Below, piece by piece: positions 952 to 46,250 of a DNA stretch of 52,477 bases. The notes under the pieces are model-generated. The model was not told where the DNA came from. It ran no database searches and saw only the letters and a list, made by a program, of their open reading frames with translations. Every line of letters starts with the position of its first letter. The stretch's first letter is position 1. The DNA is from an uncultured bacterium. Its GTDB lineage: Bacteria > Patescibacteriota > JACMRA01. The DNA lies in the NCBI GenBank assembly GCA_963784355.1, contig CAWAQU010000005.1:1-52477 (forward strand), written 5' to 3'. A program made the position numbers and the translations under genes.

Positions 952-2892
952 TTAAGTGTGAGTAGTAGCTCTGCTTTCTATAGTAAGTCGGACTATATTG
1001 TTTTTACCTTCGGTTTTGAATTTACTTCTGGCTCCGTCTCTTTGCATTCTGACGTAAGTGACTAAATTTTGTTTAGTTTTATTAGGATCGGTACTTGAAA
1101 TATATGTATTGTAGTAAGTAGATCCAGTTGCTTGTAAATTACGTTTCAATTGAGGTAGGTTTGTAACTCCGAATTTAGTGCTTAAAGTAGCTTCTCCTTC
1201 AGCTACAGTTGCCGGGTCAGGATTGTTTATTTTACCCAAAGCCTCAACTAAGGCTTTCATATTTCGCTTTTTCTGGTTACCATTTGATGTTGCAAATATT
1301 GTGTCATTTGCCGGCACTTCAAGAATACTGCTCAAAGTCTGCCCTCCAGCACCGGTTAAATTAGGAAGTTCGTGTGTGACAAATTCGACTGCTCCAATAG
1401 CCTGATAAAATGCAGGAGTAGGGGTGTTGGTATTTGCAACAGTCTCAGCAACATTGGCAGCGTTAGTATGAATTGCTGCTTCTTTTATGCCATTTGCTAT
1501 TGCTTTCTGGGCCTCTTGGGCATGTGTTATACTTGCATGTCTATGTACATCTCCACTTCTGATATAAGCTACTGTGTGGTAGTAGATGCTACTGACCAAT
1601 AATTGCCTTTGTAAATTTGGGGCTAGTCTGGAATATTCACCACATGCATGAATTGTTTCCTCACCTATGTTGGTAGTTGCCAGTTGGGCGTCTGACAGAC
1701 TATTTATATCTGCTAAAATTTGTTGTGTGGATTTTGTGCTGCCTGTAGCATTATATGGATTTATTCCAAATTCATTTTGAAGCGAATATATTTCTAGAGC
1801 TCTATAAGCTTCTTCCTGTTGAGTATAGCTCATGTTTTTAAAATCAATATTGCCTCCGTTTACAGGAAAACCTCTGCCCAGTAAAACTGTTTCAGGTAAA
1901 GTTCCACCCTTCAAACCTGCCATTTGGCTCACTAAATCAGACATGGCAACAATCTCGCCTCCTATGCCTCTAATTGCAGTATTCAAATTTCTGGCAACTT
2001 CTGCTGGTTGGTTTGGAAAAGCTTTTCTTAATTCACTATTTGCCGCTATTAAAGCTACAGGAGTATGTTTTTCAGGAGTTTTATAGCCTTTTATTTGAGA
2101 AAAATCACCTCCTTGTTGGGTAAATATGTCCAGCATGTCACCTTGTAAAACTACAGTATCAGGCAAAGGTCCACGCATAGATTTTGCAGCTAGTTCTTGA
2201 GCTGCTCTTTCTCTTAGTACAATGTTGGATAATGGCAAAATTTGAGGATATTTAGTAAATATTTCGTATTGATTTGCTGCTAAAATTCTCGGATTTGATT
2301 CTAAATATTGCTGACAAAGGTATATGCCTCTTGGATCCATAAAAAGTTTTGTGGCTATATTACCGTAACCGTCTTTTAAAGCCAAAGGGATAAATTTACC
2401 TAATAAATGCTGTTGACCTCTAGGCCATTCATTCAAATTTGAAGATTGGTTATTCAAAAAATAATTTATCAGTAATTCGCTTTGTCTAGGGTCCATTTCC
2501 TTTATGCCCATTGCCTGTTTTCTGGCTGCTTCAGCTCTATTGGCTATTTCTGTCTTGAAAGGATCGGGCTCGCCATTTGCTCTAGCTTGCTCTCTCATTA
2601 ATCTAGCTTCCTCAGGCCCAACACCAGGGAACATGGGATTTTCAAGCATTAATTCTACTAGTCCTGCAGGCAAAGAATTCCTTAGTAATTCTTCAAATTT
2701 TCCGGCTATTTTAGTTTTGGTTTCTGCTGTTTTTCCATCATATAGTCTAGTAAATGGTTTAATCACTGTTTTTCCGGCAAATCTCTCCACAGCATCAAAT
2801 GGCTTTTTTACTGCTTTCTCTAAGTTATCAAACTGATTTGCGATATTTTCACCTATGCTCATAAATTGAATATTGGCTGGAATATAGCTCAA
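952..2892 (-). CDS. Hypothetical soluble protein, paralog of the cytoplasmic C-terminal tail of the 1621-aa VirB6-like protein
   Basis: 646-aa ORF with no obvious TM or signal peptide. Colinear motif matches to the 3867..8732 product, e.g. LFMDPRGIYLCQ vs LYGDPRGINFAQ. Start may be the downstream ATG (MSIGEN). Confidence 0.8.
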   Translation of the reverse strand: MSYIPANIQFMSIGENIANQFDNLEKAVKKPFDAVERFAGKTVIKPFTRLYDGKTAETKTKIAGKFEELLRNSLPAGLVELMLENPMFPGVGPEEARLMREQARANGEPDPFKTEIANRAEAARKQAMGIKEMDPRQSELLINYFLNNQSSNLNEWPRGQQHLLGKFIPLALKDGYGNIATKLFMDPRGIYLCQQYLESNPRILAANQYEIFTKYPQILPLSNIVLRERAAQELAAKSMRGPLPDTVVLQGDMLDIFTQQGGDFSQIKGYKTPEKHTPVALIAANSELRKAFPNQPAEVARNLNTAIRGIGGEIVAMSDLVSQMAGLKGGTLPETVLLGRGFPVNGGNIDFKNMSYTQQEEAYRALEIYSLQNEFGINPYNATGSTKSTQQILADINSLSDAQLATTNIGEETIHACGEYSRLAPNLQRQLLVSSIYYHTVAYIRSGDVHRHASITHAQEAQKAIANGIKEAAIHTNAANVAETVANTNTPTPAFYQAIGAVEFVTHELPNLTGAGGQTLSSILEVPANDTIFATSNGNQKKRNMKALVEALGKINNPDPATVAEGEATLSTKFGVTNLPQLKRNLQATGSTYYNTYISSTDPNKTKQNLVTYVRMQRDGARSKFKTEGKNNIVRLTIESRATTHT

Positions 2893-2895
2893 AAA

Positions 2896-3855
2896 CTAAT
2901 TATCGTCAATATCATGGTGATGTAAAAGCTCATCTAAATCGTGGACGTGTTTGTTTTGATTATTACCTAGACTGTCCATTCTTTGATTTTGTAGATTATT
3001 TGACCTTGGTCCGATTGCTCGTGGTCTTTGTATATTTTGAGGTTGGAATTGTGGGGGTAGGGGGTTATTAAATTGTTGAGGATAATAGTTTTGTGCCATG
3101 GGAGGCTGATTGTGTGGAATAAATTGTTGATTGAAATTGTTTGTTGGGGCTTGTGGTGGGAAATTTTGAATTGGTTGATAATTATTTTGTTCAGGATTGT
3201 ATCTTTGGGGCTGTTGACGGGTAGGCCCATTTTGAACATTGTCGCCGATAAAGGCAGCTACATCATCTTTGGTCAAAGGTTTGTTGAAATCAAGTTTACG
3301 TAAATCCAAAGTATTTTTCTCATCAAGAGCTTTTGAAAGCCTGTATTTAGCGTATAATTCAGCTTCTTCGGGTGTAATTTCAGCTTGTTGTCTAGCAGCT
3401 AATTCTTTTTGAAGCTTTTCAGGTATTTTACCGTTATTAAGCTCTTTGATAAGCTCTATACGTAGCTCTGGAGTAAGTAATTCTAATATAGTTTGCACTT
3501 TTTGCTCAACTTCTTTGTAAACGATCATTTGTCTGGCAAAGTCTAAGTCATCTATTGTTTCATCAACCAGATCTAAAAGCTCATTTAAAAACTCTTGTTT
3601 TTTACCGTCTGGAATTTCGTAAAAATCACTAAGAATTTCAATGACTTGTACTTTATTAATAATTTTCTGTTGATAAAGTTTGCGTATAGCACTAAATAGC
3701 CCATACCATAAAGGAATAAATTCAGTTATTGTATCTTCGGGTACGTGAAGATTTAGTTCATTATCTAAATTTTCTTGAATCTTTTTTAACTCATTTACTT
3801 CTTCATTAGAAATTATAGTTTGCGTATCATTTTGTGGCATAATGTAAAAATTCAA
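2896..3855 (-). CDS. Hypothetical protein with acidic helical N-terminus and Q/P/N-rich C-terminus
   Basis: 319-aa ORF packed between neighbours with only a few bp of spacing. Probable ATG start at MPQND. Confidence 0.8.
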   Translation of the reverse strand: MNFYIMPQNDTQTIISNEEVNELKKIQENLDNELNLHVPEDTITEFIPLWYGLFSAIRKLYQQKIINKVQVIEILSDFYEIPDGKKQEFLNELLDLVDETIDDLDFARQMIVYKEVEQKVQTILELLTPELRIELIKELNNGKIPEKLQKELAARQQAEITPEEAELYAKYRLSKALDEKNTLDLRKLDFNKPLTKDDVAAFIGDNVQNGPTRQQPQRYNPEQNNYQPIQNFPPQAPTNNFNQQFIPHNQPPMAQNYYPQQFNNPLPPQFQPQNIQRPRAIGPRSNNLQNQRMDSLGNNQNKHVHDLDELLHHHDIDDN

Positions 3856-3866
3856 TAAATTTTTTG

Positions 3867-6800
3867 TTAGATTGATGGAAGTTTATGGCTTGTGTATTTA
3901 TATCCACCGACTATTTTTTTATAACCGTTTGAAAATTTATCAGCCATTGATTCGGCCATAGCCTGATCTACTTTAGAGTCACTTGCACTTTTGTATTCTT
4001 TTGCTTGGCTACGGAATCTTGATTCAACATTTTCTCTCTGTTCATTTGTAATGATTTCACCTGTTGAAGGAAACATTGATTTCATTTTACTTTCTCCGGC
4101 TTCAGTATGTTTATTTAATATAATTTGTCTATTTGTTAGTCCTGGCGCCGCAACAGGATCAGCAACCTCATCTAAATTAATTCCGTAATTTTTAAATATA
4201 GACTTAGCATCCTTTACTTCAGCAGTATTACCTGAATGTAGTTTAGCCATTGCTTCACTTAAATCACCAACAATACGCTGCCTTTTTTTTGCACTACTAT
4301 TTCTTAAAATTTCATCTCTAGTGTTATCATCAAACTTTACATTTCCAAAAAAATCACTTATATTTTTATCTCCTAAGTCAGCAGCATATTCCATTTTTTC
4401 TTGTAAAGTAGCAGCACCAATTTTTGCTCTTACAGATATATTTGAAGGATCCTTCCATTTCTTATTCACAATATTACTTGCAAGATTTACACTTGCCACT
4501 TCAAGTGCTTGTGAAGCTAGTGAGTGAATTGCAGCCCTCTTACTACCCTTTTTGAAACCTTCATAAGTTGCGGCAGAGGCTTCTTTGATTCTTTGAGATT
4601 GAACTGGTCTATTATTTATATAGGATTTGGCTTTTTGGCCGATTATTCTACGTAAAGTTAGTTCTTTTGATGCTTCGTCCATAGCGGCCCACTCCGGATC
4701 TGATATATTTTCCCTAATTTCTTGTCCAACATTAGTTTTTTCTAATTGGTCCAAGGTTAATCTATTCAATTCTGACTGGAAACCTTCAGATTTTATGGAA
4801 CCATCAGGATTCTTTTCCTCGTCATTTAATTTTGTAATTCCAAATTCTTTGGCGATAGCCTTCATTTCTAACAATTCTAACTCTCTATTTTGCTCTTCTT
4901 CATTTAAATTCTGGAAGGTACTATCCTTTCTTAAATTGTATTGCTCTCTCATAAGATCGTTTTCTCCAATAAAATTTGAACCAATTTCTCTTAATCCGGA
5001 ATTAATATTTCTTTGAACCATCTTTTTTTGATCTGGATTTTGTATGTTATTAATTGCTTCTTTGTAGTAAGCATCCATCTGCATTTTGGCCGCATCTTCA
5101 CCCGCTACACTATACGCTCGTTTTCCTATTCTGTCATGTAAAGCAACCATATCACCGCCAGCTTCTTTATAACCACGAATAACCTCTGGATCGGAAAATG
5201 TTCTGGCACTTGCATTTCTAAACTTTTCGTCATTTGTAGCCAGTTCTTCACCAGATTTTTTTCTTGAGCTACTACTAGATTGAATCTGTGGCTCTTTTTC
5301 TGCCAACTTTTCTCTTATACCAGGATCTAGTTTGTCAAATACTTTCTGGGCAAAATTGATTCCTCTAGGGTCACCATAAAGTGATCTGCCGAGAGCTGCA
5401 TTTTCTAAACTTTGACTCATTAGTTGTTCAAATAGAGTTACTTGCTCTCCAGACCATTTTTGAAAATCTGAAGGAAAACTATCAAGAATGTCTTTGGCAA
5501 TAGATTCAGCAATAGTACCTGAGAGTTTTTTACCTGATATTTTTAATGCTCTATTTTTTGCATCCCTTATTCTTTCTTTTAAATCGACCTCAATAGGATC
5601 AGTTTCGCCTCGTCTTATAGCACCTTCCTCTAGAGTTTTCATTCCTATTCTATCTAGACCTACAAATCTGCTAAAATCTTCATCTCCATTTAAATAATTA
5701 TTGAGTTTGCTGCTTACAAAAGGTAGTTTTCTAATTGATCTTTCCAAATTACCATACATTGTTTCTTTTAATTCTGCTTCTTTACCTTCTCTACTTCTTG
5801 TAATACCTTCCAGTACTTTTTTAGGAGTTTTACCAAGTAATTGAACTATATCAGGTGCAATTTGAAAAGTATCGGCAACAATATTAGGTATGAATGAAGT
5901 CTTTTTGCTCCACTCTTGTCCTTGTACTTCCGCGTCTTTAAGCTTATTAGTCAATGTTTCTTTTTGACTTTCTAGCCGACTTCTCTGGGTGTTACTTAAA
6001 TTCCCGCTTGAAAGTTGTTGATTAATCTTTTCTAGTTTACCTGGTATTAAGAAATTTTTTCTTATGGATCCAACAGCACTTCCTGCTACAAAACCTGTGC
6101 TACCCCCAACAAATCTAGTGGTAGCTCCATAGGCACCCAAGAATGGTCTAGACCACTTCCCAACTGCAGATAACCCCTTTTTAGTAAAATTCTCCAGGTC
6201 CTTATCCATGAAGTTAAGTGTCATGTACAGAGCTCCAATGCTGATAGCTCCGCCTAAAATGATTCTCAAAGAGTCTTCAAAAGTTCTATCATAATTACCG
6301 GTAATATTCGAAATAGGCGATGCGACTGTTGCAGCAGCTGCTTGAGCAAAAGTATCCACAGAGTTCAAAAATATACTGGCTAAATTTCCGATACCTCCTC
6401 CAACGTAGCTCAATGCCCCTTTATTAGTATAAGTTACTTGGGCAAATTTTTCTGTAAGTACGCCGACAAGTACTAAAGAAAATACAAAAATTGGGTAAAA
6501 ACTGGTCCATTTTATAAATTTGTCTACCCATTTTTTCCCTATTGGTTTGAGACTCTCGAAAGGTAATAAATAAGTAGCCAAGGCTATAGGTGAAGTGACC
6601 ATTAAAAGCCATAAGCCTACTATACGCATAGTTGCCATATAGGCCGCCTTCCAAAATACGTAGATAGCTACACATATCATTATCAAAAAGACTGCTTCAC
6701 TGATTAGCATGGCCGTGGCTGCACCACTATTTTGGGAGAAAAAAGCTGTTAGGGGGCTCATTATACTATCTCCAGCTTGCTCGAAAACATTTGCTCCTAT

Positions 6801-8732
6801 CTTACAATCTGCTGCACCACCGTTTTTAACAGAACTTTGCATTTGTTTACCACATCTAAGTATAGAGACTCTACCGATACCATCAATTACATTACCTATT
6901 AGGGCCCTGTTAATATTATCAGGGGTCACCGTACCTTTAGTAGCAACGTAACTGTAAATAAAGACATCACCTACACCTTGGGTAATATTGATAACTGTAG
7001 CTACTCCGAGTATTGTAAAGTTAATAGATAATGCTACTATAACAATACTAGTTAAAAATTCTTGAATACTTTTTTTTACGTTCTTAATATTTAAAATATA
7101 GCCAAATCCTACGTAAAGAAACGATCCCAGTATCATTATATTTGCTATGGTAATTAATACGCTCCAGGGGGCTATTGCGACGGTAAAAAAGTCACTTCCG
7201 GCAGGATTTATACGTAAAAATACTAAAATTACCCAGCCTAATAAAAATAATACTGCAATAGCAACCCAACCACAAAAGTAGATAAACCAAAGTAATAATA
7301 TGGCAACTATATTGAATAGACCTTCTAGCAAGCTCTTTGCAACATTTGGTGCACCCGCATTGCTAGTACCGGTATTTGTGATTTCTCCACCAGTTTCACT
7401 GAAATTTTGTTGTACTAAGTTTTTATTTATACAAGTTAACTTTATTTTATTTACATCTACCCCGGCTTTTTTTAAATCATCACGATTTACAGGTATACAT
7501 GCTAAAGTGTTGTTGTTACAAAGTATTATATCATCCGTTCCATTCCACTTTTGTTTAGTTTTCAAAGTTTCAAGTTGCTCCTTTAATTTATAGTTTACTG
7601 AGCTAGGGCCGGCTGTTTTTGCATCTGCAGCTAATTTATTTGCATCTGCTGCTGTGGTAAGCTTACATCCTTGTAATTGATTTTGTACTGAGCCCTGTAT
7701 GTCAGAGAGGTCTACAATTTGATCAGCATTGGCAACTTTTTTTTCGTCTTTAAGCTTGGCCTTAAATTCACCCAGATTTTGTACACCAGGACATCGATAA
7801 GCATCTTCCCTCATTCCTTGTATAAGTGGTCCAATTCCAAGTGTTAGGGTTGATAAAACAGTTCTTGAAAGTGTTCCACATACATCATTTGCTGCATTTG
7901 TACCAGATGGAAGACCTAAAAATTTCCAATCTTTAATATATAAGCTACCTCCATCTTTTGTCGCAAAAACTCTGCCTGAACCTGTCGGCCAATTTGCTAG
8001 TGTAACACTGTTATCTCCTGAGGGCAAAGTGTCCCCTTTAAGATCCCCAAATAAAATTATCTCCTTTGTACATCTTAAATCAAGACTTTTATCCATCTCT
8101 TTATAACCAACACACACTTGGTTCGGTTTGGTGATAGGCTTGCCATCTTTTTCACAGCTTAAGCTAATTTTACTTAATTCATAAGTACTTGCTGTATTTT
8201 GATCTGTTAGCTTACAATTGTAACCATTATCAGTTTTATTAACTATTGCGGTAGGTGGTATGCCTCCTGGGGTTGTAGGGGTGTCAGGAGTCGCCGGTAC
8301 CTCTTTTCTAGTACAAATGGCAACTTCACCTGCATATCCGTTACAGCTACTATATTTCACTCCAGCTTCACCTTCACAAGTTTGATCATCAGAACCTGCC
8401 CCTATTTTACACTGCAACCTCCAAGCATCTTTACTATCCGTTCCACTGGTACAAAATACATGATTGTAAATAAGGGTACGTTGTGTGTCTCCTTGTGGAT
8501 CATAATTTGGATTGGGGGTCTGAAAATCATAGAAATCACAATCTTTTTTATCGCCACAAATCTTGGCATCTGTATCACAATCTGCACTTGTAGCAAAAAA
8601 ATAGCCCTCAGTAGCCGCTTCCGCAAAGGTATTTAAATTACTAATCCCTGAAGCCAAGCTTGTGACTAAAAGCCCTAAAACTATTAGTAATAAACTACTT
8701 TTACCGATAAAATTCGTGATTTTTTTGAGCAT
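3867..8732 (-). CDS. Large membrane protein: signal peptide, Cys-rich extracellular domain, VirB6/TrbL-like multi-TM core, long cytoplasmic tail
   Basis: 1621 aa. Hydrophobic N-terminus ending TFAEA. Many Cys in the first ~440 aa. TM block with W..LITIANIMILGSFLYVGFGYIL and RIVGLWLLMVTSPIALATYLLP..KKW..KF, a pattern typical of VirB6/TrbL-like proteins. Family call is by eye. Confidence 0.7.
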   Translation of the reverse strand: MLKKITNFIGKSSLLLIVLGLLVTSLASGISNLNTFAEAATEGYFFATSADCDTDAKICGDKKDCDFYDFQTPNPNYDPQGDTQRTLIYNHVFCTSGTDSKDAWRLQCKIGAGSDDQTCEGEAGVKYSSCNGYAGEVAICTRKEVPATPDTPTTPGGIPPTAIVNKTDNGYNCKLTDQNTASTYELSKISLSCEKDGKPITKPNQVCVGYKEMDKSLDLRCTKEIILFGDLKGDTLPSGDNSVTLANWPTGSGRVFATKDGGSLYIKDWKFLGLPSGTNAANDVCGTLSRTVLSTLTLGIGPLIQGMREDAYRCPGVQNLGEFKAKLKDEKKVANADQIVDLSDIQGSVQNQLQGCKLTTAADANKLAADAKTAGPSSVNYKLKEQLETLKTKQKWNGTDDIILCNNNTLACIPVNRDDLKKAGVDVNKIKLTCINKNLVQQNFSETGGEITNTGTSNAGAPNVAKSLLEGLFNIVAILLLWFIYFCGWVAIAVLFLLGWVILVFLRINPAGSDFFTVAIAPWSVLITIANIMILGSFLYVGFGYILNIKNVKKSIQEFLTSIVIVALSINFTILGVATVINITQGVGDVFIYSYVATKGTVTPDNINRALIGNVIDGIGRVSILRCGKQMQSSVKNGGAADCKIGANVFEQAGDSIMSPLTAFFSQNSGAATAMLISEAVFLIMICVAIYVFWKAAYMATMRIVGLWLLMVTSPIALATYLLPFESLKPIGKKWVDKFIKWTSFYPIFVFSLVLVGVLTEKFAQVTYTNKGALSYVGGGIGNLASIFLNSVDTFAQAAAATVASPISNITGNYDRTFEDSLRIILGGAISIGALYMTLNFMDKDLENFTKKGLSAVGKWSRPFLGAYGATTRFVGGSTGFVAGSAVGSIRKNFLIPGKLEKINQQLSSGNLSNTQRSRLESQKETLTNKLKDAEVQGQEWSKKTSFIPNIVADTFQIAPDIVQLLGKTPKKVLEGITRSREGKEAELKETMYGNLERSIRKLPFVSSKLNNYLNGDEDFSRFVGLDRIGMKTLEEGAIRRGETDPIEVDLKERIRDAKNRALKISGKKLSGTIAESIAKDILDSFPSDFQKWSGEQVTLFEQLMSQSLENAALGRSLYGDPRGINFAQKVFDKLDPGIREKLAEKEPQIQSSSSSRKKSGEELATNDEKFRNASARTFSDPEVIRGYKEAGGDMVALHDRIGKRAYSVAGEDAAKMQMDAYYKEAINNIQNPDQKKMVQRNINSGLREIGSNFIGENDLMREQYNLRKDSTFQNLNEEEQNRELELLEMKAIAKEFGITKLNDEEKNPDGSIKSEGFQSELNRLTLDQLEKTNVGQEIRENISDPEWAAMDEASKELTLRRIIGQKAKSYINNRPVQSQRIKEASAATYEGFKKGSKRAAIHSLASQALEVASVNLASNIVNKKWKDPSNISVRAKIGAATLQEKMEYAADLGDKNISDFFGNVKFDDNTRDEILRNSSAKKRQRIVGDLSEAMAKLHSGNTAEVKDAKSIFKNYGINLDEVADPVAAPGLTNRQIILNKHTEAGESKMKSMFPSTGEIITNEQRENVESRFRSQAKEYKSASDSKVDQAMAESMADKFSNGYKKIVGGYKYTSHKLPSI

Positions 8733-8809
8733 TTTTTGTTTTTGTTTTAAATTTATTTTACTTTAGTTTTTGCACCTTGGCAAATTCTGTTTGATGTATA
8801 GATTATTGT

Positions 8810-9622
8810 TTATATTCCCTCACTTTCAGCTTCATTTTCTTCGGTATTCTGTAAATCTTGATCTTGAGTAGTATTACTATCTTCCTCTGCATTAGCTTCC
8901 TCGATTTCATCATCACTTACCTCTTCAGGCTTGCTGACTAAAGTAGCAGTTACAGGGTCTGCCTTAGGGTCAGCTATTACTTTTTTTAAATCTAAGGTGT
9001 ATACTGTGATATCAAGAGCCTCTTCAAAACTTTTGACAGTGTTAAGCTGAAAAATAGTACGGTCTTCCTCTTCCTGGAAAGTATTTACTATAAACAGCTT
9101 TTGTGGATTTGATAATTGTTTAACCTCAAAAAAATCAGGTTTGGAAAAATAAAGCTGAGATGTAGAATCAGTATTTTGGCTGATAAAAAACCAGTAAATC
9201 TGATTGTTTACTGTAAATTCAAAAAAATCAGAGATGGATTGACCTAAAAATCTAACCTCGTTTTTACTATCAACAATAAATAATTTCTCATCCAATTTTT
9301 TATTAGTATTTGGATCATTAAACATGGGCTTTTGAAGTGCATCTTGGAATTTTTTGTCTTTAATTTCAGTATAAGGAATCTTTAAAACTTTACTACTACC
9401 TGACAAATCAGCAATGTCATACAAGTTACTACTAGTCATGGCCTCAACTGTGTATTCATCAACAGTATTTTGATCGACTTGTGTTTCTTGTTGAGTATTT
9501 TGCTGTAGAGCGGGCGTTGTTTTATTGGAGGTATTTAACCAAATCATTAAACCGGTTATACTGATTAAAGTAACTATCAAGCCAATCACAAAAATTTTTG
9601 ATTTGAAGATGTTTTGAAGCAT
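8810..9622 (-). CDS. Membrane-anchored hypothetical protein (paralog of 9630..10949)
   Basis: 270 aa, N-terminal TM, acidic tail, motif VNNQIYWFF...FSKPDF. Confidence 0.8.
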   Translation of the reverse strand: MLQNIFKSKIFVIGLIVTLISITGLMIWLNTSNKTTPALQQNTQQETQVDQNTVDEYTVEAMTSSNLYDIADLSGSSKVLKIPYTEIKDKKFQDALQKPMFNDPNTNKKLDEKLFIVDSKNEVRFLGQSISDFFEFTVNNQIYWFFISQNTDSTSQLYFSKPDFFEVKQLSNPQKLFIVNTFQEEEDRTIFQLNTVKSFEEALDITVYTLDLKKVIADPKADPVTATLVSKPEEVSDDEIEEANAEEDSNTTQDQDLQNTEENEAESEGI

Positions 9623-9629
9623 AATATTT

Positions 9630-10949
9630 TTATTTTAGTTTTTCTATAAAAGTTGTCCAATTGTTGTCGTGCCAGTAGCGAAGTTGATTTTCATAAATTT
9701 GCAATAATAAATCAGGCTGATTATTTGTGTTTGTTAGTGTCTCATCTAAATTTTTTGGGGTAGGGGTAAAATTGTTAATTTTTTTAGTCTCTAGCTTTTG
9801 ATCAATGATATTATTTATTTGGACACTAGTGAGTTGGTTGTTTACCGGGTCATATATATAGCAAGTATTGATTTCTCGAGCGCAATTAAAGGATACACCA
9901 AGGCTTCGAATTTCCAAGTTTTGTACTTGCCTGAATTCTCCGGTGTCTTGATCATATACCCAAGCTTTATCACTATAGTAACTAGAATACACCACAATTA
10001 GGTTATTTGCAAGGACATCAATTTTAAATTCAGGTTCTGTAAGTAAGGCCGCGTCACCACCAAGATCGTTACCTTGATTTGATGTTACAATATTTGCAAA
10101 TTCTCCCAACAAATTTTTACTTGTATCTTGATTGATGATGTCCGGGTTTTCAGATGCAATTACTTGCTTAGCGGGGTAGGTAATTAGTTCATTTTGAATT
10201 GTGTAAAAATAAAAATCTACTATTTGAGTGAGATCTGCTTCTAGCAGTTTTTTTGTATCTAGTTTGGTGAAAATATATTTTCCGTAGCTTGCATTTTCAT
10301 CCTCTTCAGGATCGGTGCCGTGGGAATGTTCATCTCCTGCAAATTCAGTCTGAAGCCAAATATCTGTTGAAAATGAAACCGGTTGATAGATTTTTACAAT
10401 TTGGTTGTAATTTTCGTCTTCAGCGCTGATTTCTCTGTTGTCTTTAAAGTCTGGTTTGGAAATGTTTAGCTTAGAATTGCTCGTATATATCCAATATATT
10501 TGATCATTAATTCTTATTTCTTTTAAATTTTGAACTTGTTTTTGAGGTGAAAAAAACTTTTGGTCTCTAGAGTCGTAAAATATGGTAAAAATACTTGCTT
10601 CAGGATTTTCTAGAACTAGATATTCAAATTTCGGGTCTTTTGACTTGAAGTACTCAAATTCATTTTCATTTAAGATGCTGATTTCATATACTTTTAGACC
10701 TGTTGATAATGTATTTACCAAATACAACTCAGAATCAATATTAGTTTGGGTAGATTGGGATTGATTGTCTCTATTTATTATAGCTTGGGTAAAATTCTCT
10801 GCGCTTTTAGAAATATTATTTATCGGACTTGAGTTTATAATTTGCTGATTTTGATTGCTGTTTATGTACCTTGAAAGAACAAGAGTCACTACTATAATTA
10901 GGATCAAAACTGAACCAATGATTATGTATTTTTTTCTTTCTAAAGTCAT
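9630..10949 (-). CDS. Membrane-anchored hypothetical protein (paralog of 8810..9622)
   Basis: 439 aa, N-terminal TM, motif INDQIYWIY...ISKPDF. Confidence 0.8.
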   Translation of the reverse strand: MTLERKKYIIIGSVLILIIVVTLVLSRYINSNQNQQIINSSPINNISKSAENFTQAIINRDNQSQSTQTNIDSELYLVNTLSTGLKVYEISILNENEFEYFKSKDPKFEYLVLENPEASIFTIFYDSRDQKFFSPQKQVQNLKEIRINDQIYWIYTSNSKLNISKPDFKDNREISAEDENYNQIVKIYQPVSFSTDIWLQTEFAGDEHSHGTDPEEDENASYGKYIFTKLDTKKLLEADLTQIVDFYFYTIQNELITYPAKQVIASENPDIINQDTSKNLLGEFANIVTSNQGNDLGGDAALLTEPEFKIDVLANNLIVVYSSYYSDKAWVYDQDTGEFRQVQNLEIRSLGVSFNCAREINTCYIYDPVNNQLTSVQINNIIDQKLETKKINNFTPTPKNLDETLTNTNNQPDLLLQIYENQLRYWHDNNWTTFIEKLK

Positions 10950-10953
10950 AATA

Positions 10954-13900
10954 TTACTTTGCTTCTAAAGCTTTAAAATTACCTCTAAGTGTGGGACATT
11001 TTAATATACTACAAGGAGGGGTATTACCATGATAGCTTCCGTTTTTTGTAAGTTCGAAATGTAGATGTGGCCCGGTAGAGCGACCCGTACTACCCATTTT
11101 ACCTATAAGCTGGCCTTTTTTTACAGTACCACTTTTTACTACAAATTGGCTAAGATGTAAGTATCTTGTTTGGTAACCTTCTGCGTGTTTTAGGCGAATT
11201 TCATTGCCTGTTTCACTATCAAATTTGGCATACATGATTTCACCATCAGCAGCTGCGTAGATAGGAGTACCAATAGCATTGGCTATATCTACTCCATTAT
11301 GATTTCTACCTCTTGTAGGGTGTGGTTTGGCGTAATAGTCTGTATAAACACCACTTGTTGGAGTTACAAATTTAGCGGATGAGGGAACATTTGGATCGGG
11401 TGTGTTAGTGTTATCACTTTGATCTGCAGCTTTATCAGATATCTCTTGACATTCTACAGCTTTATCAGGTGTACTTCTGTCTCCGCCTGATTCTACCGGG
11501 AGTGTGGTATTACTTACCTCTTTCAACCCTTTATTTAGAGTAGCTTTAGATGTTTGGCCATCTGGCGTTTTATCTTTTAAGGTGGCAGGATCAGCATAAT
11601 TTTTTAGTGCGTTTTCAATATTATTTTTAGTTATAATCTTAGCTATTTCAAGATTAATATTAGCATCACTACCTTTAGACATCCATGGCCCTGAGTTCCA
11701 GGCTCCATTTTTTCTAACTAGGCTGATAAATTTAATTAAATTTGATTCAATTTTTCCATCAGGATTTATCCAATCTATATCGCTTCTATTCCACGGCTGT
11801 ACTCCCCAGTGTACGTAAAGTAAGGTAGGATCAGACGAATATTTAGCAGCAATCTTGGCTGTAGATTCTAACATGGCAGTTGTGGGTTTTTCACCTTTTG
11901 TGCTGGCATCATAGTGCATCTCAACTTGAATAGTATTACTATTTACTGTATAGGAACTGTTATTTTTATAAATACGTCCTAGAGCACCTGCACCACGGTA
12001 ATGGTCAGGAAGTGTTTGGTAAATCTCACCGTTTCTACCGGTAGTGAAATGGACATAGGCCTCTCCTTTTTGGGCTTCTGCCCTTCTGCGAAATTCTGCT
12101 GCCATATCATCAACTGTATAAGAACTGTTAGATTGTCCCATTGCAGTATAATGTAAAATTACAGCTTTTTTAGTGTTGCCGTTGGCTAAATCACCACGAT
12201 TTCGTACTAAATATTTTGTATTAGCTCCAGGAAATATACCAGATGTGGCAGCTTCTGTACTAATTGGACCTGCTAAATCAGTTAAATTTTCAAAAAAATT
12301 GTTTGTTGCAGAATTGATTGAAGAATTATCAGCAAAATTTGTATCCAATTCATTACTGCCAATCGAACTTGATTTTGTACTTGTGCCAGCAAACACTTTG
12401 GTATTAGCTGCAATATCTTTAACATAATGTCTTGTTTCACTAAATGGCGGTACACCTCCATACTTTTCTACATTACCTGGTCCTGCATTGTATGCAGCAA
12501 GAACCAAAGTAGTATTTGCTTTTGTAACTTTTAATTTGTATAAACGTTTTAAATAAACAGCTTGGGCATAAATTGCTAGCTCAGGATTTCGGGTGATGTC
12601 ATTTAAAGATAAAGGTTTGCCTGTTGTAGGATGATTCACTGTGGCAATAGTATCAGGCATAAATTGAGTCATACCGGTAGCACCTGCGGATGATCTAACT
12701 GAGCCGTTAATTAAATCAGTTCTAAATGCACTTTCTTGCAGAATCTGGGCCATCATCATATTGGGATCCAGTCCAAATTGTTTGGCGTATTTCTCAACTG
12801 TAGGCTGATACTTTTTCATGTTGGCGATTTGCTCGGATCCGACAGTTATTTTTTTATCATCTCTTGTAAATGCTTTTGTATCATAACTTCCTACTGTAGT
12901 TCCAGCTCCAGCTCCGCCACTTGATCCACCTCCGAAATTGCTGCCTCCAGTTGATACAAGCTGAGTTTGATTGTTGTCAGCACATTTACACAATGATGAA
13001 ATATTAGTTGAATTGGGCGTTTTGCTACCATTTCCTCCACCAGTGGGCGGTGTGGTTTTCCCGGCTCCATCTGCATCTTGAGCAACATAAAAATGAAAAT
13101 GGTTATTATGATTTGCAAGTGATTGAGTAGTTATGGATCCTCCTCCTGTTAAAGGTGATCTTGGAGATCCTGCCGGCCAACCTTTGCTTGTTAATTGTCT
13201 TTGAACTGACCCATACGTAATTAAACCCCTAATCAAATTGCTACTCTTTGCAAATTCTGCCATTTGCACTGCTGCTTGAGTCGATGCAGATGATCCTCCT
13301 CCAGTTGCTTCTGTTAATGTGTATGTTTTTCCGTCTTGAGTAGTAAAGCGGTCAATATCTAATCCCAAACCACTAAAATGACCACCTGCATAATCACCAT
13401 GACTAGTACCATCATTCATACCGGTAATCTGAATATTTTTGTACTTTTCCGCTATCGCTATAATTAGATCAACCGTTGCTATATTTAGTCTACCTTGTTT
13501 TGCTTCAACAGATGGAAGAGCTATATCAGCTGGCTCATGCCAATAATCAATTTTACCTGATTTTTCCAAACTCTCAAGCTTCTGTATTTTAGCTGTAGGT
13601 ATTTTGTTGTTACCGAGTGCTTTACCTACTCTAGCTTCTGTGTTGATTGATTGAAAAGGATTAGTATAACTAAGTAAGTTTAAATCTTCGTTTACTGTAG
13701 ACCGGGAATCCACTAAATATTGATTTCCAATGTCATCAGTATAAGCCTGTTTAGAGTTTGACTGTTGTGATTTATAACTTTGCAGTCGTTTGTTATAATA
13801 GTCTTTATATTCTGCCATTGTAGCGTGTCTTTGACCTAAAGGTGAATTAGGCATTGAGGCCCAGTGTTTGTTACCAACTTGAATCACTTGTTCCAGGCCG

Positions 13901-16900
13901 TTAGATTTAGTAAGTACTTTTTCAAGTCTTAAATTATCTTGACTACCACTTGCAAGACCGGCGTAAATTCCCAAAGGGTAGTAATCCTGACTAGTGGGTT
14001 TAAAGTCTTTTATCTGGAAACTATACCCCGCTTTTTTTAAGCCACTGTTTGCTGCATTTATATCATCCATGCTATATTGAGCGGTATAATACTGATACCT
14101 TCCTATATTCCATGCACCTCCTCCTCCAGGTGCTTTACCACCGGATTTAAGTTTCGGTTTGAGGTTGGTCGAAGCTTGCGCGTCAAAATCATTTGCTACG
14201 AAATTCCCGCTATTGTAAGATGCTAAAGTTAACGGATCAGACTCAGACTCCCATTTAGCAAGGGTATCTAAAAATGCTCTGACTTCTGGTGTAAATGGTC
14301 CCCCTGTTGAAACTGTACCTCCGGCTGTGTTAGTAGAGACAGTTCCTGAGTCAGTATTGCTACTACTAGATAAAAGTTGTGTACGGGTACCCAATGAGGT
14401 GCAAGCACATGAATTTAGTTTACCGACTGGCTCAATTACTTCATCTTCATTTGTATTGCTTTCAGTAGGGGTAGAGGGTGTGGTTTTCCCGGCTCCATCT
14501 GCATCTTGAGCAACATAAAAATGAAAATGGTTATTATGATTTGCAAGTGATTGAGTAGTTATGGATCCTCCTCCTGTTAAAGGTGATCTTGGAGATCCTG
14601 CCGGCCAACCTTTGCTTGTTAATTGTCTTTGAACTGACCCATACGTAATTAAACCCCTAATCAAATTGCTACTCTTTGCAAATTCTGCCATTTGCACTGC
14701 TGCTTGAGTCGATGCAGATGATCCTCCTCCAGTTGCTTCTGTTAATGTGTATGTTTTTCCGTCTTGAGTAGTAAAGCGGTCAATATCTAATCCCAAACCA
14801 CTAAAATGACCACCTGCATAATCACCATGACTAGTACCATCATTCATACCGGTAATCTGAATATTTTTGTACTTTTCCGCTATCGCTATAATTAGATCAA
14901 CCGTTGCTATATTTAGTCTACCTTGTTTTGCTTCAACAGATGGAAGAGCTATATCAGCTGGCTCATGCCAATAATCAATTTTACCTGATTTTTCCAAACT
15001 CTCAAGCTTCTGTATTTTAGCTGTAGGTATTTTGTTGTTACCGAGTGCTTTACCTACTCTAGCTTCTGCTTGAATAGGGCTAAAAATATTATTTACATCA
15101 GCAAGTAAGCTATTTTCACTTTTTTCGCTAGATTTTTCCTCACCAATGTCAGATGCAACAGCTATTTTGGCACATTCAAAAAAAGCAGAGTTTCTGACAG
15201 CAGCAGCACCGTAGTCAGTAGATTTAGTGTTTCCGTCACCTCCACCAGGTCTAACACATCCCAAGTGAGCATAAGATACTAAATAAATACTTCCTTTGCC
15301 TTGTGCATACTCACAGTTCGCTTTTAGTTTAATTTTCCACTGTTCATAAGCAAATTTCATCTGCAATGGCTTGTTTTTAATTAATTCAGATGGAGGTATA
15401 TCTCTTCCAAGAATTTTTTCTGAAATACCTTGATAAGTTTCACCACCTTGTTTACTTCGACAAAATTGAATAATACCCCAGCAGTCATACTTAGGTCCGT
15501 TCCAGATTGTCCAATCATAACCGCTTTCAGTCGGTCCAAGTGATAGTACCCAAGCAATTACATAGTCTGGTACACCTGCAGTTCTACCTGCACTTACTAT
15601 TTCATCAAACTTTTGTTTAGTTAGAGTAAATTCTTGTTTCAAACCGTTATTTGCTGTCCATAATGTCAGCCTAGTCTTGTTCTTGAAAACTTTATCAAAA
15701 CAATACGTTCCACCGGGACTACTTTCACTATCTGAACCACCAGGATCAGTCTCATCATTGTTTACAGCTTTGGCTGTAGTATTTGCACTGGTATTACAAT
15801 CTAAATTCAGCCCCTCGCATATTCCACTTTCTTCCAATAACACTCTAAGTTGAGATTTAAATCCTTTTCCTGTGGCTGCATTATATAATGCTCCCGGTAC
15901 ATTAGTACCAATCATAAAAAGTTCTACACCATCTCGTGTAGTTTCAAACTCCTTTCTACAATATATAGAAATTAATCCTCCAATAGCCAGTAGAAAAAAT
16001 AATACTATAAGTATAATAGGTACTAACCAAGTCAAAAATGGCCACACCGACTTCAGAAGTAATTTCAATGCCTGCTCTTTAACCTCACTTGGTAAAGCAT
16101 TGAGAGCAGCCTGACTAATTCTATTACTATTTTGGGACTGCCTTTCCAATCTTTGCGCTGTTTCCTCGTCTCCATTCTCTCTTGCCTTTGTAGCTTCATC
16201 CAGCTTATTTTTAGCATTATCCTGAGTGGTCTGTAAAGTTCTTTTAATGCGATCTACCCCACTTGAATTATTAAATTTTTCAAATCTTTGCCTTTTTGCG
16301 TTTGCTTTTCTACCTGCTTTATCAGCCAGTTCTTTATCCGTATCTTGCAAGTATTTGTTGTAAAAATCTAGTTTGTCGGCTTCCTCTAATCTAGTCTGAT
16401 GCTTATGATGTGTGTCCTCATGTGCTTCTTGGGCAAACCTATCAGCTGGTAACGATCTGAAGTTAAACTTATTGTCAGTGTCTTTTATTTTATTATCTAA
16501 AGGAGGTACCACAAATGGCTTGACTTCCTCTTCCTCGGGTTTATCTGGAGTATTGAAAGCTACAAAAGATTCTTCATCTCCAAAGTTTGTGTTTGTGGCA
16601 TTATTTCCTCCAAGGTAATTTTTCCATTGTTCCTCTTCTCTGATTTTTCTATCACTCTCCATCTGCTCCTTAAGCTTTTTCAATTCTTCCTCTTTTCGCA
16701 GTTTTTCTTCTTCAGCCTCTGCACTATCTGCACTATTTGTATCATTTTGCTCAGGGTCCAAACTACCTTTACCGGGAATGATTTCTATTAGTTCATCCTC
16801 AGGTTTCTTATTTACACTATCTTCCTGATTATTTTTAATACTATCACTTTCTGAATCAAAAATATTTTCATCTGTGTCATCGCTGTCTACATTGCCTACA

Positions 16901-17787
16901 TTCGAGCCGGAATCAGGTCGACTTTGAAATTTATTACCACCACTTCCAGCTCCAGTGGAATTTTTAGGACTAGAGTTTGTGTTAAAATCATCTGAAGTAG
17001 TACTGCCTGGGGTAGGTAGATTTATAGCATCAGATAGCTTATTGGTAGTTCTGTTTTTTACGTAACCTTCATATTGCTTAACTAATCTGTCCCAATATTT
17101 ATCAACAAACTTTTGCTCCAGCTCAGTTTTAACATTGCTAAAATAATCCCTACCTTGACTATTTCTTCCAAAATTCCACTTAATTTGATTATCCTCTAGC
17201 CCAATGTTTATATACTTCTTTAAAGTCTGTTGCAATTCTGCACCTTGTTGTAGCTCACCGCTAATCTGTTCCTGATATTTCTGTGAAACTAGATCATAAA
17301 CTTCCTCCAAAAATCTATTTACCACGTCGTTATTAGCTACTATTTTATTACCCGAGTAGTATTCTTGTGGAGTAAAAAGTTCTTCAATAATGTTACCACG
17401 ATAATCAGGGCTAAAAATTCTAGTGTATTGATCTAAAATCTTCTTTTGTTCCGGTTTTGTTTCGTTGTTTTGTAAAAATTTATTATATTCTTCAGTAACT
17501 TTTTGATTAACTTCATCCAGGCCCAAGTCAATTAGATTCGACGAGGATCCGAAATAGTGATAGATAAAATCACTTAGTTTATTTAAAATATTTTTGCTAC
17601 TTAGGTCGTAGCGTAGTGTTTCAACTTCACTATCAATATTTCTCTCCTTCTGCTTTTCAGTAAAACTTTTTTCTTTTTGATCTGCTTTTTGAGCTTTAGT
17701 AACACCAGATACTGGGCCAAGTACTTTTGGCTTTTTTAGGTTTGTAAGTCTATTTTGTAGACCAGGATCTAGTGATTTACCCGGCAT
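10954..17787 (-). CDS. Giant membrane-anchored multi-domain peptidoglycan hydrolase (lysozyme-like, 2x M15-like Zn peptidase, lambda-type lysozyme, SLT, amidase_2-like, M23)
   Basis: 2277 aa with one TM (~15960-16045). Motifs in order: PTESG..WGIIQF; GHFSGLGLDID..HNNHFH (twice); RAFLDTLAKWES..GRYQY..FKPTSQD..WASMP; QESAF..GATGMTQFMP..LAAYNAGPGNV..PPFSETRHYV; VILHYTA..YVHF; HNGVD..YLHL..GPHLHF. Confidence 0.88.
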   Translation of the reverse strand: MPGKSLDPGLQNRLTNLKKPKVLGPVSGVTKAQKADQKEKSFTEKQKERNIDSEVETLRYDLSSKNILNKLSDFIYHYFGSSSNLIDLGLDEVNQKVTEEYNKFLQNNETKPEQKKILDQYTRIFSPDYRGNIIEELFTPQEYYSGNKIVANNDVVNRFLEEVYDLVSQKYQEQISGELQQGAELQQTLKKYINIGLEDNQIKWNFGRNSQGRDYFSNVKTELEQKFVDKYWDRLVKQYEGYVKNRTTNKLSDAINLPTPGSTTSDDFNTNSSPKNSTGAGSGGNKFQSRPDSGSNVGNVDSDDTDENIFDSESDSIKNNQEDSVNKKPEDELIEIIPGKGSLDPEQNDTNSADSAEAEEEKLRKEEELKKLKEQMESDRKIREEEQWKNYLGGNNATNTNFGDEESFVAFNTPDKPEEEEVKPFVVPPLDNKIKDTDNKFNFRSLPADRFAQEAHEDTHHKHQTRLEEADKLDFYNKYLQDTDKELADKAGRKANAKRQRFEKFNNSSGVDRIKRTLQTTQDNAKNKLDEATKARENGDEETAQRLERQSQNSNRISQAALNALPSEVKEQALKLLLKSVWPFLTWLVPIILIVLFFLLAIGGLISIYCRKEFETTRDGVELFMIGTNVPGALYNAATGKGFKSQLRVLLEESGICEGLNLDCNTSANTTAKAVNNDETDPGGSDSESSPGGTYCFDKVFKNKTRLTLWTANNGLKQEFTLTKQKFDEIVSAGRTAGVPDYVIAWVLSLGPTESGYDWTIWNGPKYDCWGIIQFCRSKQGGETYQGISEKILGRDIPPSELIKNKPLQMKFAYEQWKIKLKANCEYAQGKGSIYLVSYAHLGCVRPGGGDGNTKSTDYGAAAVRNSAFFECAKIAVASDIGEEKSSEKSENSLLADVNNIFSPIQAEARVGKALGNNKIPTAKIQKLESLEKSGKIDYWHEPADIALPSVEAKQGRLNIATVDLIIAIAEKYKNIQITGMNDGTSHGDYAGGHFSGLGLDIDRFTTQDGKTYTLTEATGGGSSASTQAAVQMAEFAKSSNLIRGLITYGSVQRQLTSKGWPAGSPRSPLTGGGSITTQSLANHNNHFHFYVAQDADGAGKTTPSTPTESNTNEDEVIEPVGKLNSCACTSLGTRTQLLSSSSNTDSGTVSTNTAGGTVSTGGPFTPEVRAFLDTLAKWESESDPLTLASYNSGNFVANDFDAQASTNLKPKLKSGGKAPGGGGAWNIGRYQYYTAQYSMDDINAANSGLKKAGYSFQIKDFKPTSQDYYPLGIYAGLASGSQDNLRLEKVLTKSNGLEQVIQVGNKHWASMPNSPLGQRHATMAEYKDYYNKRLQSYKSQQSNSKQAYTDDIGNQYLVDSRSTVNEDLNLLSYTNPFQSINTEARVGKALGNNKIPTAKIQKLESLEKSGKIDYWHEPADIALPSVEAKQGRLNIATVDLIIAIAEKYKNIQITGMNDGTSHGDYAGGHFSGLGLDIDRFTTQDGKTYTLTEATGGGSSASTQAAVQMAEFAKSSNLIRGLITYGSVQRQLTSKGWPAGSPRSPLTGGGSITTQSLANHNNHFHFYVAQDADGAGKTTPPTGGGNGSKTPNSTNISSLCKCADNNQTQLVSTGGSNFGGGSSGGAGAGTTVGSYDTKAFTRDDKKITVGSEQIANMKKYQPTVEKYAKQFGLDPNMMMAQILQESAFRTDLINGSVRSSAGATGMTQFMPDTIATVNHPTTGKPLSLNDITRNPELAIYAQAVYLKRLYKLKVTKANTTLVLAAYNAGPGNVEKYGGVPPFSETRHYVKDIAANTKVFAGTSTKSSSIGSNELDTNFADNSSINSATNNFFENLTDLAGPISTEAATSGIFPGANTKYLVRNRGDLANGNTKKAVILHYTAMGQSNSSYTVDDMAAEFRRRAEAQKGEAYVHFTTGRNGEIYQTLPDHYRGAGALGRIYKNNSSYTVNSNTIQVEMHYDASTKGEKPTTAMLESTAKIAAKYSSDPTLLYVHWGVQPWNRSDIDWINPDGKIESNLIKFISLVRKNGAWNSGPWMSKGSDANINLEIAKIITKNNIENALKNYADPATLKDKTPDGQTSKATLNKGLKEVSNTTLPVESGGDRSTPDKAVECQEISDKAADQSDNTNTPDPNVPSSAKFVTPTSGVYTDYYAKPHPTRGRNHNGVDIANAIGTPIYAAADGEIMYAKFDSETGNEIRLKHAEGYQTRYLHLSQFVVKSGTVKKGQLIGKMGSTGRSTGPHLHFELTKNGSYHGNTPPCSILKCPTLRGNFKALEAK
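13049..13640. repeat. 592-bp direct repeat, copy A (intragenic)
   Basis: Reads identical to 14477..15068 (offset 1428 bp, in frame); the translated ~197-aa block is identical in the ORF track. Confidence 0.95.
14477..15068. repeat. 592-bp direct repeat, copy B (intragenic)
   Basis: Reads identical to 13049..13640. Confidence 0.95.
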
Positions 17788-45190: not shown

Positions 45191-45321
45191 ATCAAATCTC
45201 TACAATATTTCAGTATTTAAAGCTTATACTGTAAGTCATTTACCTAATTGGTATACTGGATTTGTCTAAAAATAAATTATGTTATATAATTACCAAAAGA
45301 ATAAAAATTAAACAAAAACAA

Positions 45322-46248: not shown

Positions 46249-46250
46249 AT

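Follow-up and report, generated by a model that had tools for sequence, protein, structure and literature searches.

A separately encoded, soluble paralog of the C-terminal tail of a VirB6-like protein in one genus of Patescibacteria

The gene pair and its shared domain

The stretch of DNA analyzed here (52,477 nucleotides (nt); contig CAWAQU010000005.1 of assembly GCA_963784355.1, an uncultured patescibacterium), hereafter the window, carries near its beginning a string of genes on the reverse strand. One of them encodes a VirB6-like protein, P0002, and two genes downstream, behind the gene of a third protein, P0003, lies the gene of P0001, the subject of this work (Table 1). The assembly is 1.14 Mb long (13 contigs, 81% complete, 1970 open reading frames (ORFs)); this genome is referred to as G000, and its congener as G001. 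In a first-pass annotation, P0001 had been described as a free, soluble paralog of the cytoplasmic tail of P0002. The ORFs for both proteins are as described there, and the relationship between them was confirmed.

A BLASTP comparison of the two proteins produced one high-scoring segment pair (HSP), which joins residues 41-630 of P0001 to residues 971-1578 of P0002 (88.6 bits, E 8e-22), with 142/646 identities (22%) and 15% gaps over ca. 590 colinear residues. The ten pairs of motifs that had been matched by eye, e.g., EWPRGQQHL/KWSGEQVTL and KYPQI/KEPQI, are all in register within this HSP. The Smith-Waterman score of the pair, 286, is far above every one of 600 shuffled controls: 300 global shuffles gave a mean of 45.0, a standard deviation of 6.1, and a maximum of 72 (z 39), and 300 shuffles inside 20-residue windows gave a mean of 44.4 and a maximum of 71 (z 41). 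A reversed sequence scored 43, and P0001 compared with the first 940 residues of P0002 scored 34. In the entire assembly, only the P0001 and P0002 loci matched. We conclude that the 646-amino-acid (aa) protein is a real but very diverged copy of the tail of the VirB6-like protein.

P0001 starts at TTG at position 2892 (646 aa) or at ATG at position 2862, which would give the 636 aa of database record P0004; the starts inspected showed no clear Shine-Dalgarno sequence. A Kyte-Doolittle scan revealed no hydrophobic segment, in agreement with the solubility proposed earlier. The AlphaFold2 model of the free copy is all-helical, with a predicted local distance difference test score (pLDDT) of 65.5 and a predicted TM score (pTM) of 0.41. 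A Foldseek search with this model returned nothing at E<=1e-3, and the best match in a wide VIA search (Z 8.0) covered residues 460-646 only and involved generic helical bundles. Lysine and arginine make up 10.5-12.9% of the free copies versus 14-16% of the tails, and cysteines number 2-3 in the free copies versus 0 in the tails of the genus. An alignment of five sequences contains 17 invariant columns, mostly Gly, Ala, and Pro, with no catalytic pattern. The free protein ends in a K/R-containing stretch; the C-terminus of its ortholog in G001 is not positively charged. The predicted complex of the free copy with the 319-aa neighbor P0003 scored 0.00 in both runs, which were made with no controls and are evidence neither way.

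The domain shared by the tail and the free copy had no match in Pfam, NCBIfam, or PHROGs. PDB sequence searches with a tail profile and with a whole-family profile gave nothing below E 0.1, and ESM Atlas gave no usable match. A near-length homolog search with P0001 found only P0001 itself, and a scan of metagenome contigs with alignment A5 matched 387 pattern stretches, 0 of which were confirmed by tblastn. When a profile built from two free copies and three tails (A1) was searched against 1.84 billion representative proteins at E<=0.001, only 17 proteins were retrieved. Thirteen of these, 1324-2736 aa in length, match over a C-terminal portion, and four are short (636, 612, 742, and 508 aa). 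Of the latter, those of 636 and 612 aa represent the free copies of G000 and of the congener. The other two were considered as further free forms: P0011 (742 aa) is 63% identical over 733 residues to the tail of P0012, a 1488-aa member of the family, and P0018 (508 aa) matches mid-tail segments only. As both come with no genomic context, they may be gene fragments and were not counted. Thus, the domain is, as had been claimed, undescribed; it is narrow in distribution and limited to about one order. The VirB6-like core itself was found in 23 of the 27 genomes of the order and in 18 of its 19 genera, in ORFs of ca. 1200-1800 aa where complete. In G004, the VirB6-like frame (L054, G004:C19, about 5291-9262) is only 815 aa long, with a 207-aa tail, and is followed by ca. 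1.5 kb that contains no ORF of at least 120 aa before the partner gene; the tail there may be broken or frameshifted.

The VirB6-like protein and the side of its tail

The hydropathy profile of P0002 consists of an N-terminal anchor, a hydrophilic part up to approximately residue 460, and a hydrophobic core (463-842), with no hydrophobic segment after it. The core is polytopic, with at least five hydrophobic helices by hydropathy scans and in AlphaFold2 models. The tail (ca. 760 aa) is all-helical and contains no hydrophobic segments, the feature of the extended-VirB6 subtype. The linker that leads to the duplicated part is Gly-rich, then coiled-coil-like and strongly positive, and is absent from the free copy.

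To relate the core to known families, profile and structure comparisons were combined. A six-frame search with PF04610 (TrbL) of 301 genomes of the phylum gave matches in 38 (a tally that includes one unpublished genome, G173, which supports no other statement made here). One match, at the gathering score (25.9 bits, E 3.2e-6), falls within the P0002 ortholog of G009, which is 1749 aa long. A hidden Markov model (HMM) of the core, built from 13 family members, matched 16 of 20 TrbL-positive ORFs of Patescibacteria at E<1e-4 (best 1.5e-23); of the remaining ORFs, two matched weakly and two did not match. Alignment of the core with the TrbL-positive alignment by hhalign gave 98.8% probability (E 1.2e-16, 248 columns), and a Patescibacteria TrbL profile matched P0002 only among the 1970 ORFs of the genome (E 1.8e-10). 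In a Foldseek search with an AlphaFold2 model of residues 441-900 (pLDDT 60.9, pTM 0.57), the top five matches were all R388 TrwI/VirB6 chains, with weak E-values of 0.14-0.35. VIA alignment of the model with TrwI gave Z 12.2 and a root-mean-square deviation of 4.2 A, with 259 of the 261 TrwI residues aligned. In a search of 48,161 chains, independent of Foldseek, TrwI ranked first and was the sole chain with Z>=8; Legionella DotA ranked second (Z 7.8).

Several observations weigh against this assignment. P0002 itself had no match in Pfam, NCBIfam, or PHROGs, TrbL included; no match to Pfam TrbL was found anywhere in its genome, and a scan of 12 other family proteins gave none at E<=0.05. The quality of the core model is only moderate (pLDDT 60.9, and 45-47 for the other four models), and VIA Z values near 12 are possible between unrelated helical bundles. 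Finally, neither here nor in the relatives inspected is the VirB6-like gene near virB4; its neighbors in relatives are housekeeping genes. Genes of the type IV secretion system (T4SS) lie on other contigs. A cluster on contig C3 (ca. 20.7-31.2 kb, L016) encodes a VirB2-like protein, an unassigned 700-aa polytopic protein, a TcpE/VirB3-like protein, a VirB4-like protein, a C39-like peptidase, and a VirD4-like protein, and an isolated second VirB4-like gene (739 aa) is located on contig C12 (ca. 122.4-124.6 kb, L015). The sole TrbL-type gene of the genome thus sits on a third contig. This set agrees with the repertoire for Patescibacteria described in PMC12102498. The 700-aa protein was considered as a possible "real" VirB6; neither the core profile nor the TrbL profile of Patescibacteria matches it, and BLASTP relates it to P0002 only at E 0.011, over one hydrophobic stretch. 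Since the gene is not beside virB4, it is homology that assigns P0002 to a T4SS. Taken together, the profile homology and the fold support P0002 as an extended VirB6/TrbL-type T4SS subunit, the only detectable one in its genome, and the earlier designation of the large protein as VirB6-like is upheld.

The side of the membrane occupied by the tail was judged from loop charges averaged over 23 family members. The mean net charge is -2.9 before the first helix, -0.4 in loop 508-515, +2.0 in loop 548-556 (positive in 91% of sequences), +2.1 in loop 695-703 (positive in 100%), +1.3 in loop 723-741 (positive in 83%), and -1.7 in loop 762-820; loop 591-668 is neutral and contains a conserved Cys pair. 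For the 88 residues that follow the last helix, the mean net charge is +7.65, with a positive value in 100% of sequences. Given that the Cys-rich N-terminal domain is outside, the alternating loop charges and the conserved Cys pair fit an N-out, C-in topology, the one reported for Agrobacterium VirB6 (PMC7648143). By the positive-inside rule, the tail of the VirB6-like protein is thus probably cytoplasmic.

There are arguments to the contrary. The N-out, C-in arrangement holds only if the first helix, 40 residues long, forms a hairpin and segment 704-722 is re-entrant. Most of R388 VirB6 is periplasmic, outside of the membrane (PMC12857230), and the long C-terminal parts of both Anaplasma VirB6-3/-4 and F TraG lie outside the cytoplasm (PMC7648143, PMC7555446). 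Tails without Cys, which would fit export as well, are present in 22 of 23 family members (five of these 23 rows having imprecise domain boundaries), and the same count, 22 of 23, holds for the extended VirB6 proteins examined elsewhere in Patescibacteria (tails of loci L006-L007, L044-L055, and L076-L094 in addition to that of P0002); the N-terminal ectodomains carry 4-22 Cys. A Cys-free tail was rejected as proof of export: among the 154 ORFs of at least 500 aa in the genome, 13 are Cys-free, including the one for cytoplasmic DnaK, and the Cys pattern therefore cannot settle the side of the tail. The cytoplasmic location that had been stated outright in the first-pass annotation is thus favored by the charges, and it is from them that we infer it, while the extended tails described in these sources point outward.

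History and neighborhood of the free copy

With P0001 as a query, three of 41 related genomes matched, i.e., G000, G001, and G002. The congener G001 shares the gene order of the window, with a free copy of 613 aa and a large protein of 1621 aa, while in G002 only the tail was found, and the contig stops 142 bases beyond the gene. When the tail of each locus was compared by phmmer with the ORFs of the same locus, a second copy was revealed in two of 15 loci (G000, 2.4e-19; G001, 5.1e-25) and in none of the other 13, which include G002, with no downstream DNA, and G004, with its shortened 815-aa frame. A profile of 16 tail sequences (A3) searched over the 27 genomes of the order produced two matches in G000 and G001 only and one match, inside a long ORF, in 13 others; the remaining 12 genomes gave no match to this profile, whose reach is limited for tails outside it. 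For 12 other genomes of the order, which had contributed their own tails to the search profile, no second tail copy was seen. An own-tail match within ca. 10 kb was found for 0 of 23 extended TrbL-like ORFs in 19 genomes from elsewhere in the phylum.

In the tail tree, the two free copies pair with each other (support 93/93) and form the sister group (85/86) of a set made up of P0007 and the tails of the genus. The free copies have terminal branches of 1.3-1.4 versus 0.3-0.8 for those tails, and their composition was flagged as deviant. In a core tree rooted on TrbL-positive outgroups, the genus forms a clade (support 100) nested in the family, some deeper forks being weak. The free copies are no closer to the tail of their own genome than to other tails, and so there is no sign of gene conversion. 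From the sister position in the tail tree, the nested genus, and the lack of a second copy in the 12 other genomes of the order, the duplication is concluded to be genus-specific. The simplest history is a single partial duplication in the ancestor of the genus, which by then had separated from the other sampled genera but had not yet given rise to the two species.

Identities between the window's species and its congener are 87.9% for DnaK, 70.6% for the M48 peptidase, 59.0% for the VirB6-like core, 36.4% for the tail, 35.0% for the ectodomain, 31.9% for the 319-aa neighbor, 30.2% for the giant hydrolase, 27.9% for the free copy, and 21.5% for the 270-aa protein. The gene string is thus hypervariable except for the core, and the free copy is near the fast end. 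The duplication had been presented as an old one that stayed intact. With a support of 85/86 in the tail tree and a genus-specific origin, "old" is too strong; the duplication looks old only because the tail and the copy evolve very fast. "Intact" applies to the reading frame and to colinearity, and less so to the sequence, since the copy has longer branches and a shifted composition. The one available congener keeps both copies. Because both orthologs keep full-length frames (646 and 613 aa) that are colinear with the tail, we argue that the protein is under selection. Faster evolution, lower charge, and gained cysteines indicate that the role of the free copy has changed and that it is more than a spare.

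P0003 belongs to a family of soluble proteins of 236-394 aa, whose genes immediately follow the VirB6-like gene in 13 of the 14 loci with downstream DNA (homologs were taken from loci L006, L044-L049, and L051-L055); in G025, a 286-aa ORF in the same position was not recognized as a homolog. Family members consist of an acidic helical N-terminal domain and a P/Q-rich linker, followed by an LDxLL-type motif, which is at or near the C-terminus in nine of 13 sequences. The partner family has no family match; its members resemble an adaptor or chaperone that would serve the module. The free copy of the genus sits right after the partner gene, with 3 to 33 nt between them. Soluble proteins of 597 aa (G022) and 604 aa (G018) encoded downstream were considered as tail copies and rejected, since they are M3 oligopeptidases.

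The free copy is conserved in position and strand, and intergenic gaps in the window measure 0-33 nt. Two bitopic proteins, of 270 and 439 aa, each have one N-terminal hydrophobic segment and no family match; the former is homologous to a protein in the congener. The 2277-aa protein of the same gene string, which matches no family over its first ca. 1650 residues, is a candidate for a VirB1-like enzyme that breaches the wall. Giant peptidoglycan-hydrolase proteins of 1263-2277 aa adjoin the VirB6-like module in G000, G001, G006, and G020, and their domain sets vary: SLT, Amidase_2, and M23 in the window, VanY and a beta-lactamase-like domain in the congener, and M23 or VanY with M23 in the others. 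The M48 (HtpX-like) peptidase gene (L006:2113-3006 in the congener) is 0 and 92 nt from the free paralog in the two species of the genus and is not beside the module in other genera.

Table 1. Positions of the features discussed (in the window unless a locus is named).
Feature	Coordinates	Strand	Remarks
M48 (HtpX-like) peptidase, 314 aa	7-951	-	Abuts the free paralog; equal position in congener
Free paralog of the VirB6-like tail (P0001), 646 aa	952-2892	-	Soluble, all-alpha, 2 Cys
Soluble 319-aa protein (P0003)	2896-3855	-	Conserved downstream neighbor of the VirB6-like gene
VirB6-like 1621-aa protein (P0002)	3867-8732	-	ORF call
P0002, C-terminal 43 residues	3870-3998	-	Outside the BLASTP alignment with the free copy
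P0002, residues 971-1578, colinear with the free paralog	3999-5822	-	BLASTP HSP; profile envelope 864-1614
P0002 linker, residues 860-970	5823-6155	-	From last membrane helix to duplicated part
P0002 VirB6/TrbL-like polytopic membrane core, residues 459-859	6156-7358	-	
P0002 N-terminal signal/anchor and Cys-rich ectodomain, residues 1-458	7359-8732	-	18 Cys in residues 36-458
Two bitopic proteins, 270 aa (8810-9622) and 439 aa (9630-10949)	8810-10949	-	Between the hydrolase and the VirB6-like gene
2277-aa protein with SLT, Amidase_2, and M23 domains at its C-terminal end	10954-17787	-	
Giant hydrolases in relatives	L006:12367-18294, L049:3438-7229, L052:11098-14961		

Two observations concern genes located elsewhere in the window. 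A frame for an NAD-dependent DNA ligase (39779-40708, reverse strand) is only 309 aa long and begins at position 170 of the Pfam adenylation-domain model; of the neighboring ORFs examined, neither the one for a GNAT acetyltransferase, on the opposite strand, nor the one of 245 aa, which matches no family, was found to contain the N-terminal part of the ligase. Adjoining genes at 45262-47444 (forward strand) encode a WxL cell-wall-binding domain protein and a protein with the WxL-interacting-protein peptidoglycan-binding domain, a pair typical of Firmicutes.

Known relatives and possible roles

Extended VirB6 proteins, Rickettsiales paralogs made by duplication of the whole gene, and a proposed cleaved form of TraG, TraG*, are already known (PMC12857230, PMC7648143, and PMC7555446). 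In the first of these, a 2025 review, extended VirB6 is defined by a large hydrophilic C-proximal domain besides the hydrophobic core, and the role of the extensions is given as not known (PMC12857230). P0002 resembles extended VirB6 (PF04610) in that a polytopic core of VirB6 fold is followed by a long hydrophilic C-terminal domain, and other Patescibacteria have similar proteins, with TrbL matches often in ORFs of 850-1535 aa. It differs in that its tail is a separate undescribed family, its gene is away from virB4, and in one genus the tail is also encoded by a stand-alone gene. F TraG likewise has a VirB6-like N-terminal membrane part and a large C-terminal domain for which a free form, TraG*, was once proposed (PMC7555446). 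TraG*, however, was thought to be a signal-peptidase product of the same polypeptide, is periplasmic, and reportedly needs anchoring to work (PMC7555446), whereas the free form in the window is the product of a separate diverged gene and has no export signal. In Rickettsiales, the VirB6 proteins (Anaplasma VirB6-1 to -4, Rickettsia RvhB6) have undergone duplication, carry very long C-terminal extensions, and evolve fast (PMC7648143; VirB6 paralogs of Rickettsiales are also the subject of PMC2653234). There, entire virB6 genes were duplicated in tandem, the core was kept, and the extensions are reported to be surface-exposed (PMC7648143); in the genus studied here, the tail alone was copied and is probably cytoplasmic. 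TcpH-type VirB6 proteins (MPF_FA, 700-900 residues) are enlarged VirB6 homologs with extra domains from monoderm T4SSs (PMC12857230). In these features they resemble P0002. The C-terminal domain of TcpH is cytoplasmic and contacts other Tcp proteins, and we know of no free paralog of it. A separately encoded, tail-only VirB6 paralog was not found in a limited full-text search of the literature, which did not extend to supplementary tables.

Our best guess is that the free copy works at the cytoplasmic face of a T4SS, as a soluble accessory protein or as a competitor. In the ancestor of the genus, the 3' part of the VirB6-like gene, from ca. 110 residues past the last membrane helix to near its end, was duplicated, and the copy, placed two genes downstream, behind the gene of the 300-aa partner, gave rise to a soluble stand-alone protein. 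In both species the frame has remained intact, colinear, and within the same string of genes, although the orthologs are now only ca. 28% identical. If the tail faces the cytoplasm, the free copy, with no export signal, would work there too. It would most likely still bind some partners of the tail, be it the 300-aa protein, ATPases of the VirB4/VirD4 type, or, provided that VirB6 is pentameric here as it is in R388, the tails themselves. In this way the free copy would act as an extra untethered subunit, or as a competitor, and tune the cytoplasmic face of the machine. For the explanation as a whole, from the extended VirB6 through the tail duplication in the genus to the cytoplasmic accessory or competitor, we consider belief and doubt evenly balanced.

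The free copy may instead have left the secretion system and be a neofunctionalized helical protein or a slowly decaying operon passenger. Its branches, the longest in the tail tree, its deviant composition, its place among the least conserved genes of the cluster, its restriction to one genus, and the noncatalytic character of its 17 invariant Gly/Ala/Pro-dominated columns would all be expected in that case. However, a neutral frame would not survive as orthologs that are ca. 28% identical and yet keep frames of 646 and 613 aa, colinear over ca. 590 residues, and conserved position and strand, with gaps of 0-33 nt in the window, also speak against it. We consider this explanation unlikely, if still worth keeping in mind.

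The accessory or competitor role must also be weighed against export: the free copy could be a T4SS substrate delivered to the cell surface or to a host bacterium, and the acidic neighbor its chaperone or adaptor. The very fast evolution of the string (28% identity for the free copy, 36% for the tail, 35% for the ectodomain, and 32% for the partner versus 88% for DnaK) resembles that of genes for host interaction, tails are almost completely Cys-free across the phylum, and extended VirB6 proteins of Rickettsiales have been proposed to release their C-termini into the target cell (PMC7648143). The K/R-containing end of the free protein and a neighbor that is small, acidic, and provided with a conserved C-terminal motif would also suit a substrate. 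Yet the free copies, unlike the tails, gained 2-3 Cys, the ortholog in G001 lacks the positively charged C-terminus, and the positive-inside pattern places the parent domain in the cytoplasm; delivery as a substrate is thus decidedly unlikely. Quite improbable, too, is an extracytoplasmic tail that is part of a host-contacting surface structure and is joined outside by a free copy exported by a non-classical route. The surface-exposed C-termini of Anaplasma VirB6-3/-4, the periplasmic C-terminal domain of TraG (PMC7648143, PMC7555446), the bulk of R388 VirB6 outside of the membrane (PMC12857230), and hypervariable, Cys-free tails beside Cys-rich ectodomains speak for such a structure, but the segment after the last helix (mean net charge +7.65, positive in all 23 sequences) and the alternation of charges between loops agree with C-in, the free copy lacks both a signal peptide and hydrophobic segments, and long Cys-free proteins are not rare (13/154 ORFs of at least 500 aa, DnaK among them). 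That the copy is a newly born secreted substrate or effector of the Patescibacteria T4SS, derived from the tail of the translocon itself and served by the acidic 300-aa neighbor as adaptor, and that the Cys-free, hypervariable tails of extended VirB6 proteins in general are threaded or presented to the host cell, appears highly improbable.

T4SS genes are reported to be essential for epibiotic growth of a cultured patescibacterium (PMC12102498). The naturally soluble, separately encoded tail described here would be a convenient handle for structure determination and for fishing of partners, and the contrast between free and tethered forms in charge, cysteines, and rate hints at which features tethering imposes. 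The wider context is probably more generally useful than the genus-confined duplication itself: across the order, an extended VirB6 and a 300-aa acidic LDxLL-type protein form a two-gene module apart from virB4, and Cys-free tails extend throughout the phylum.

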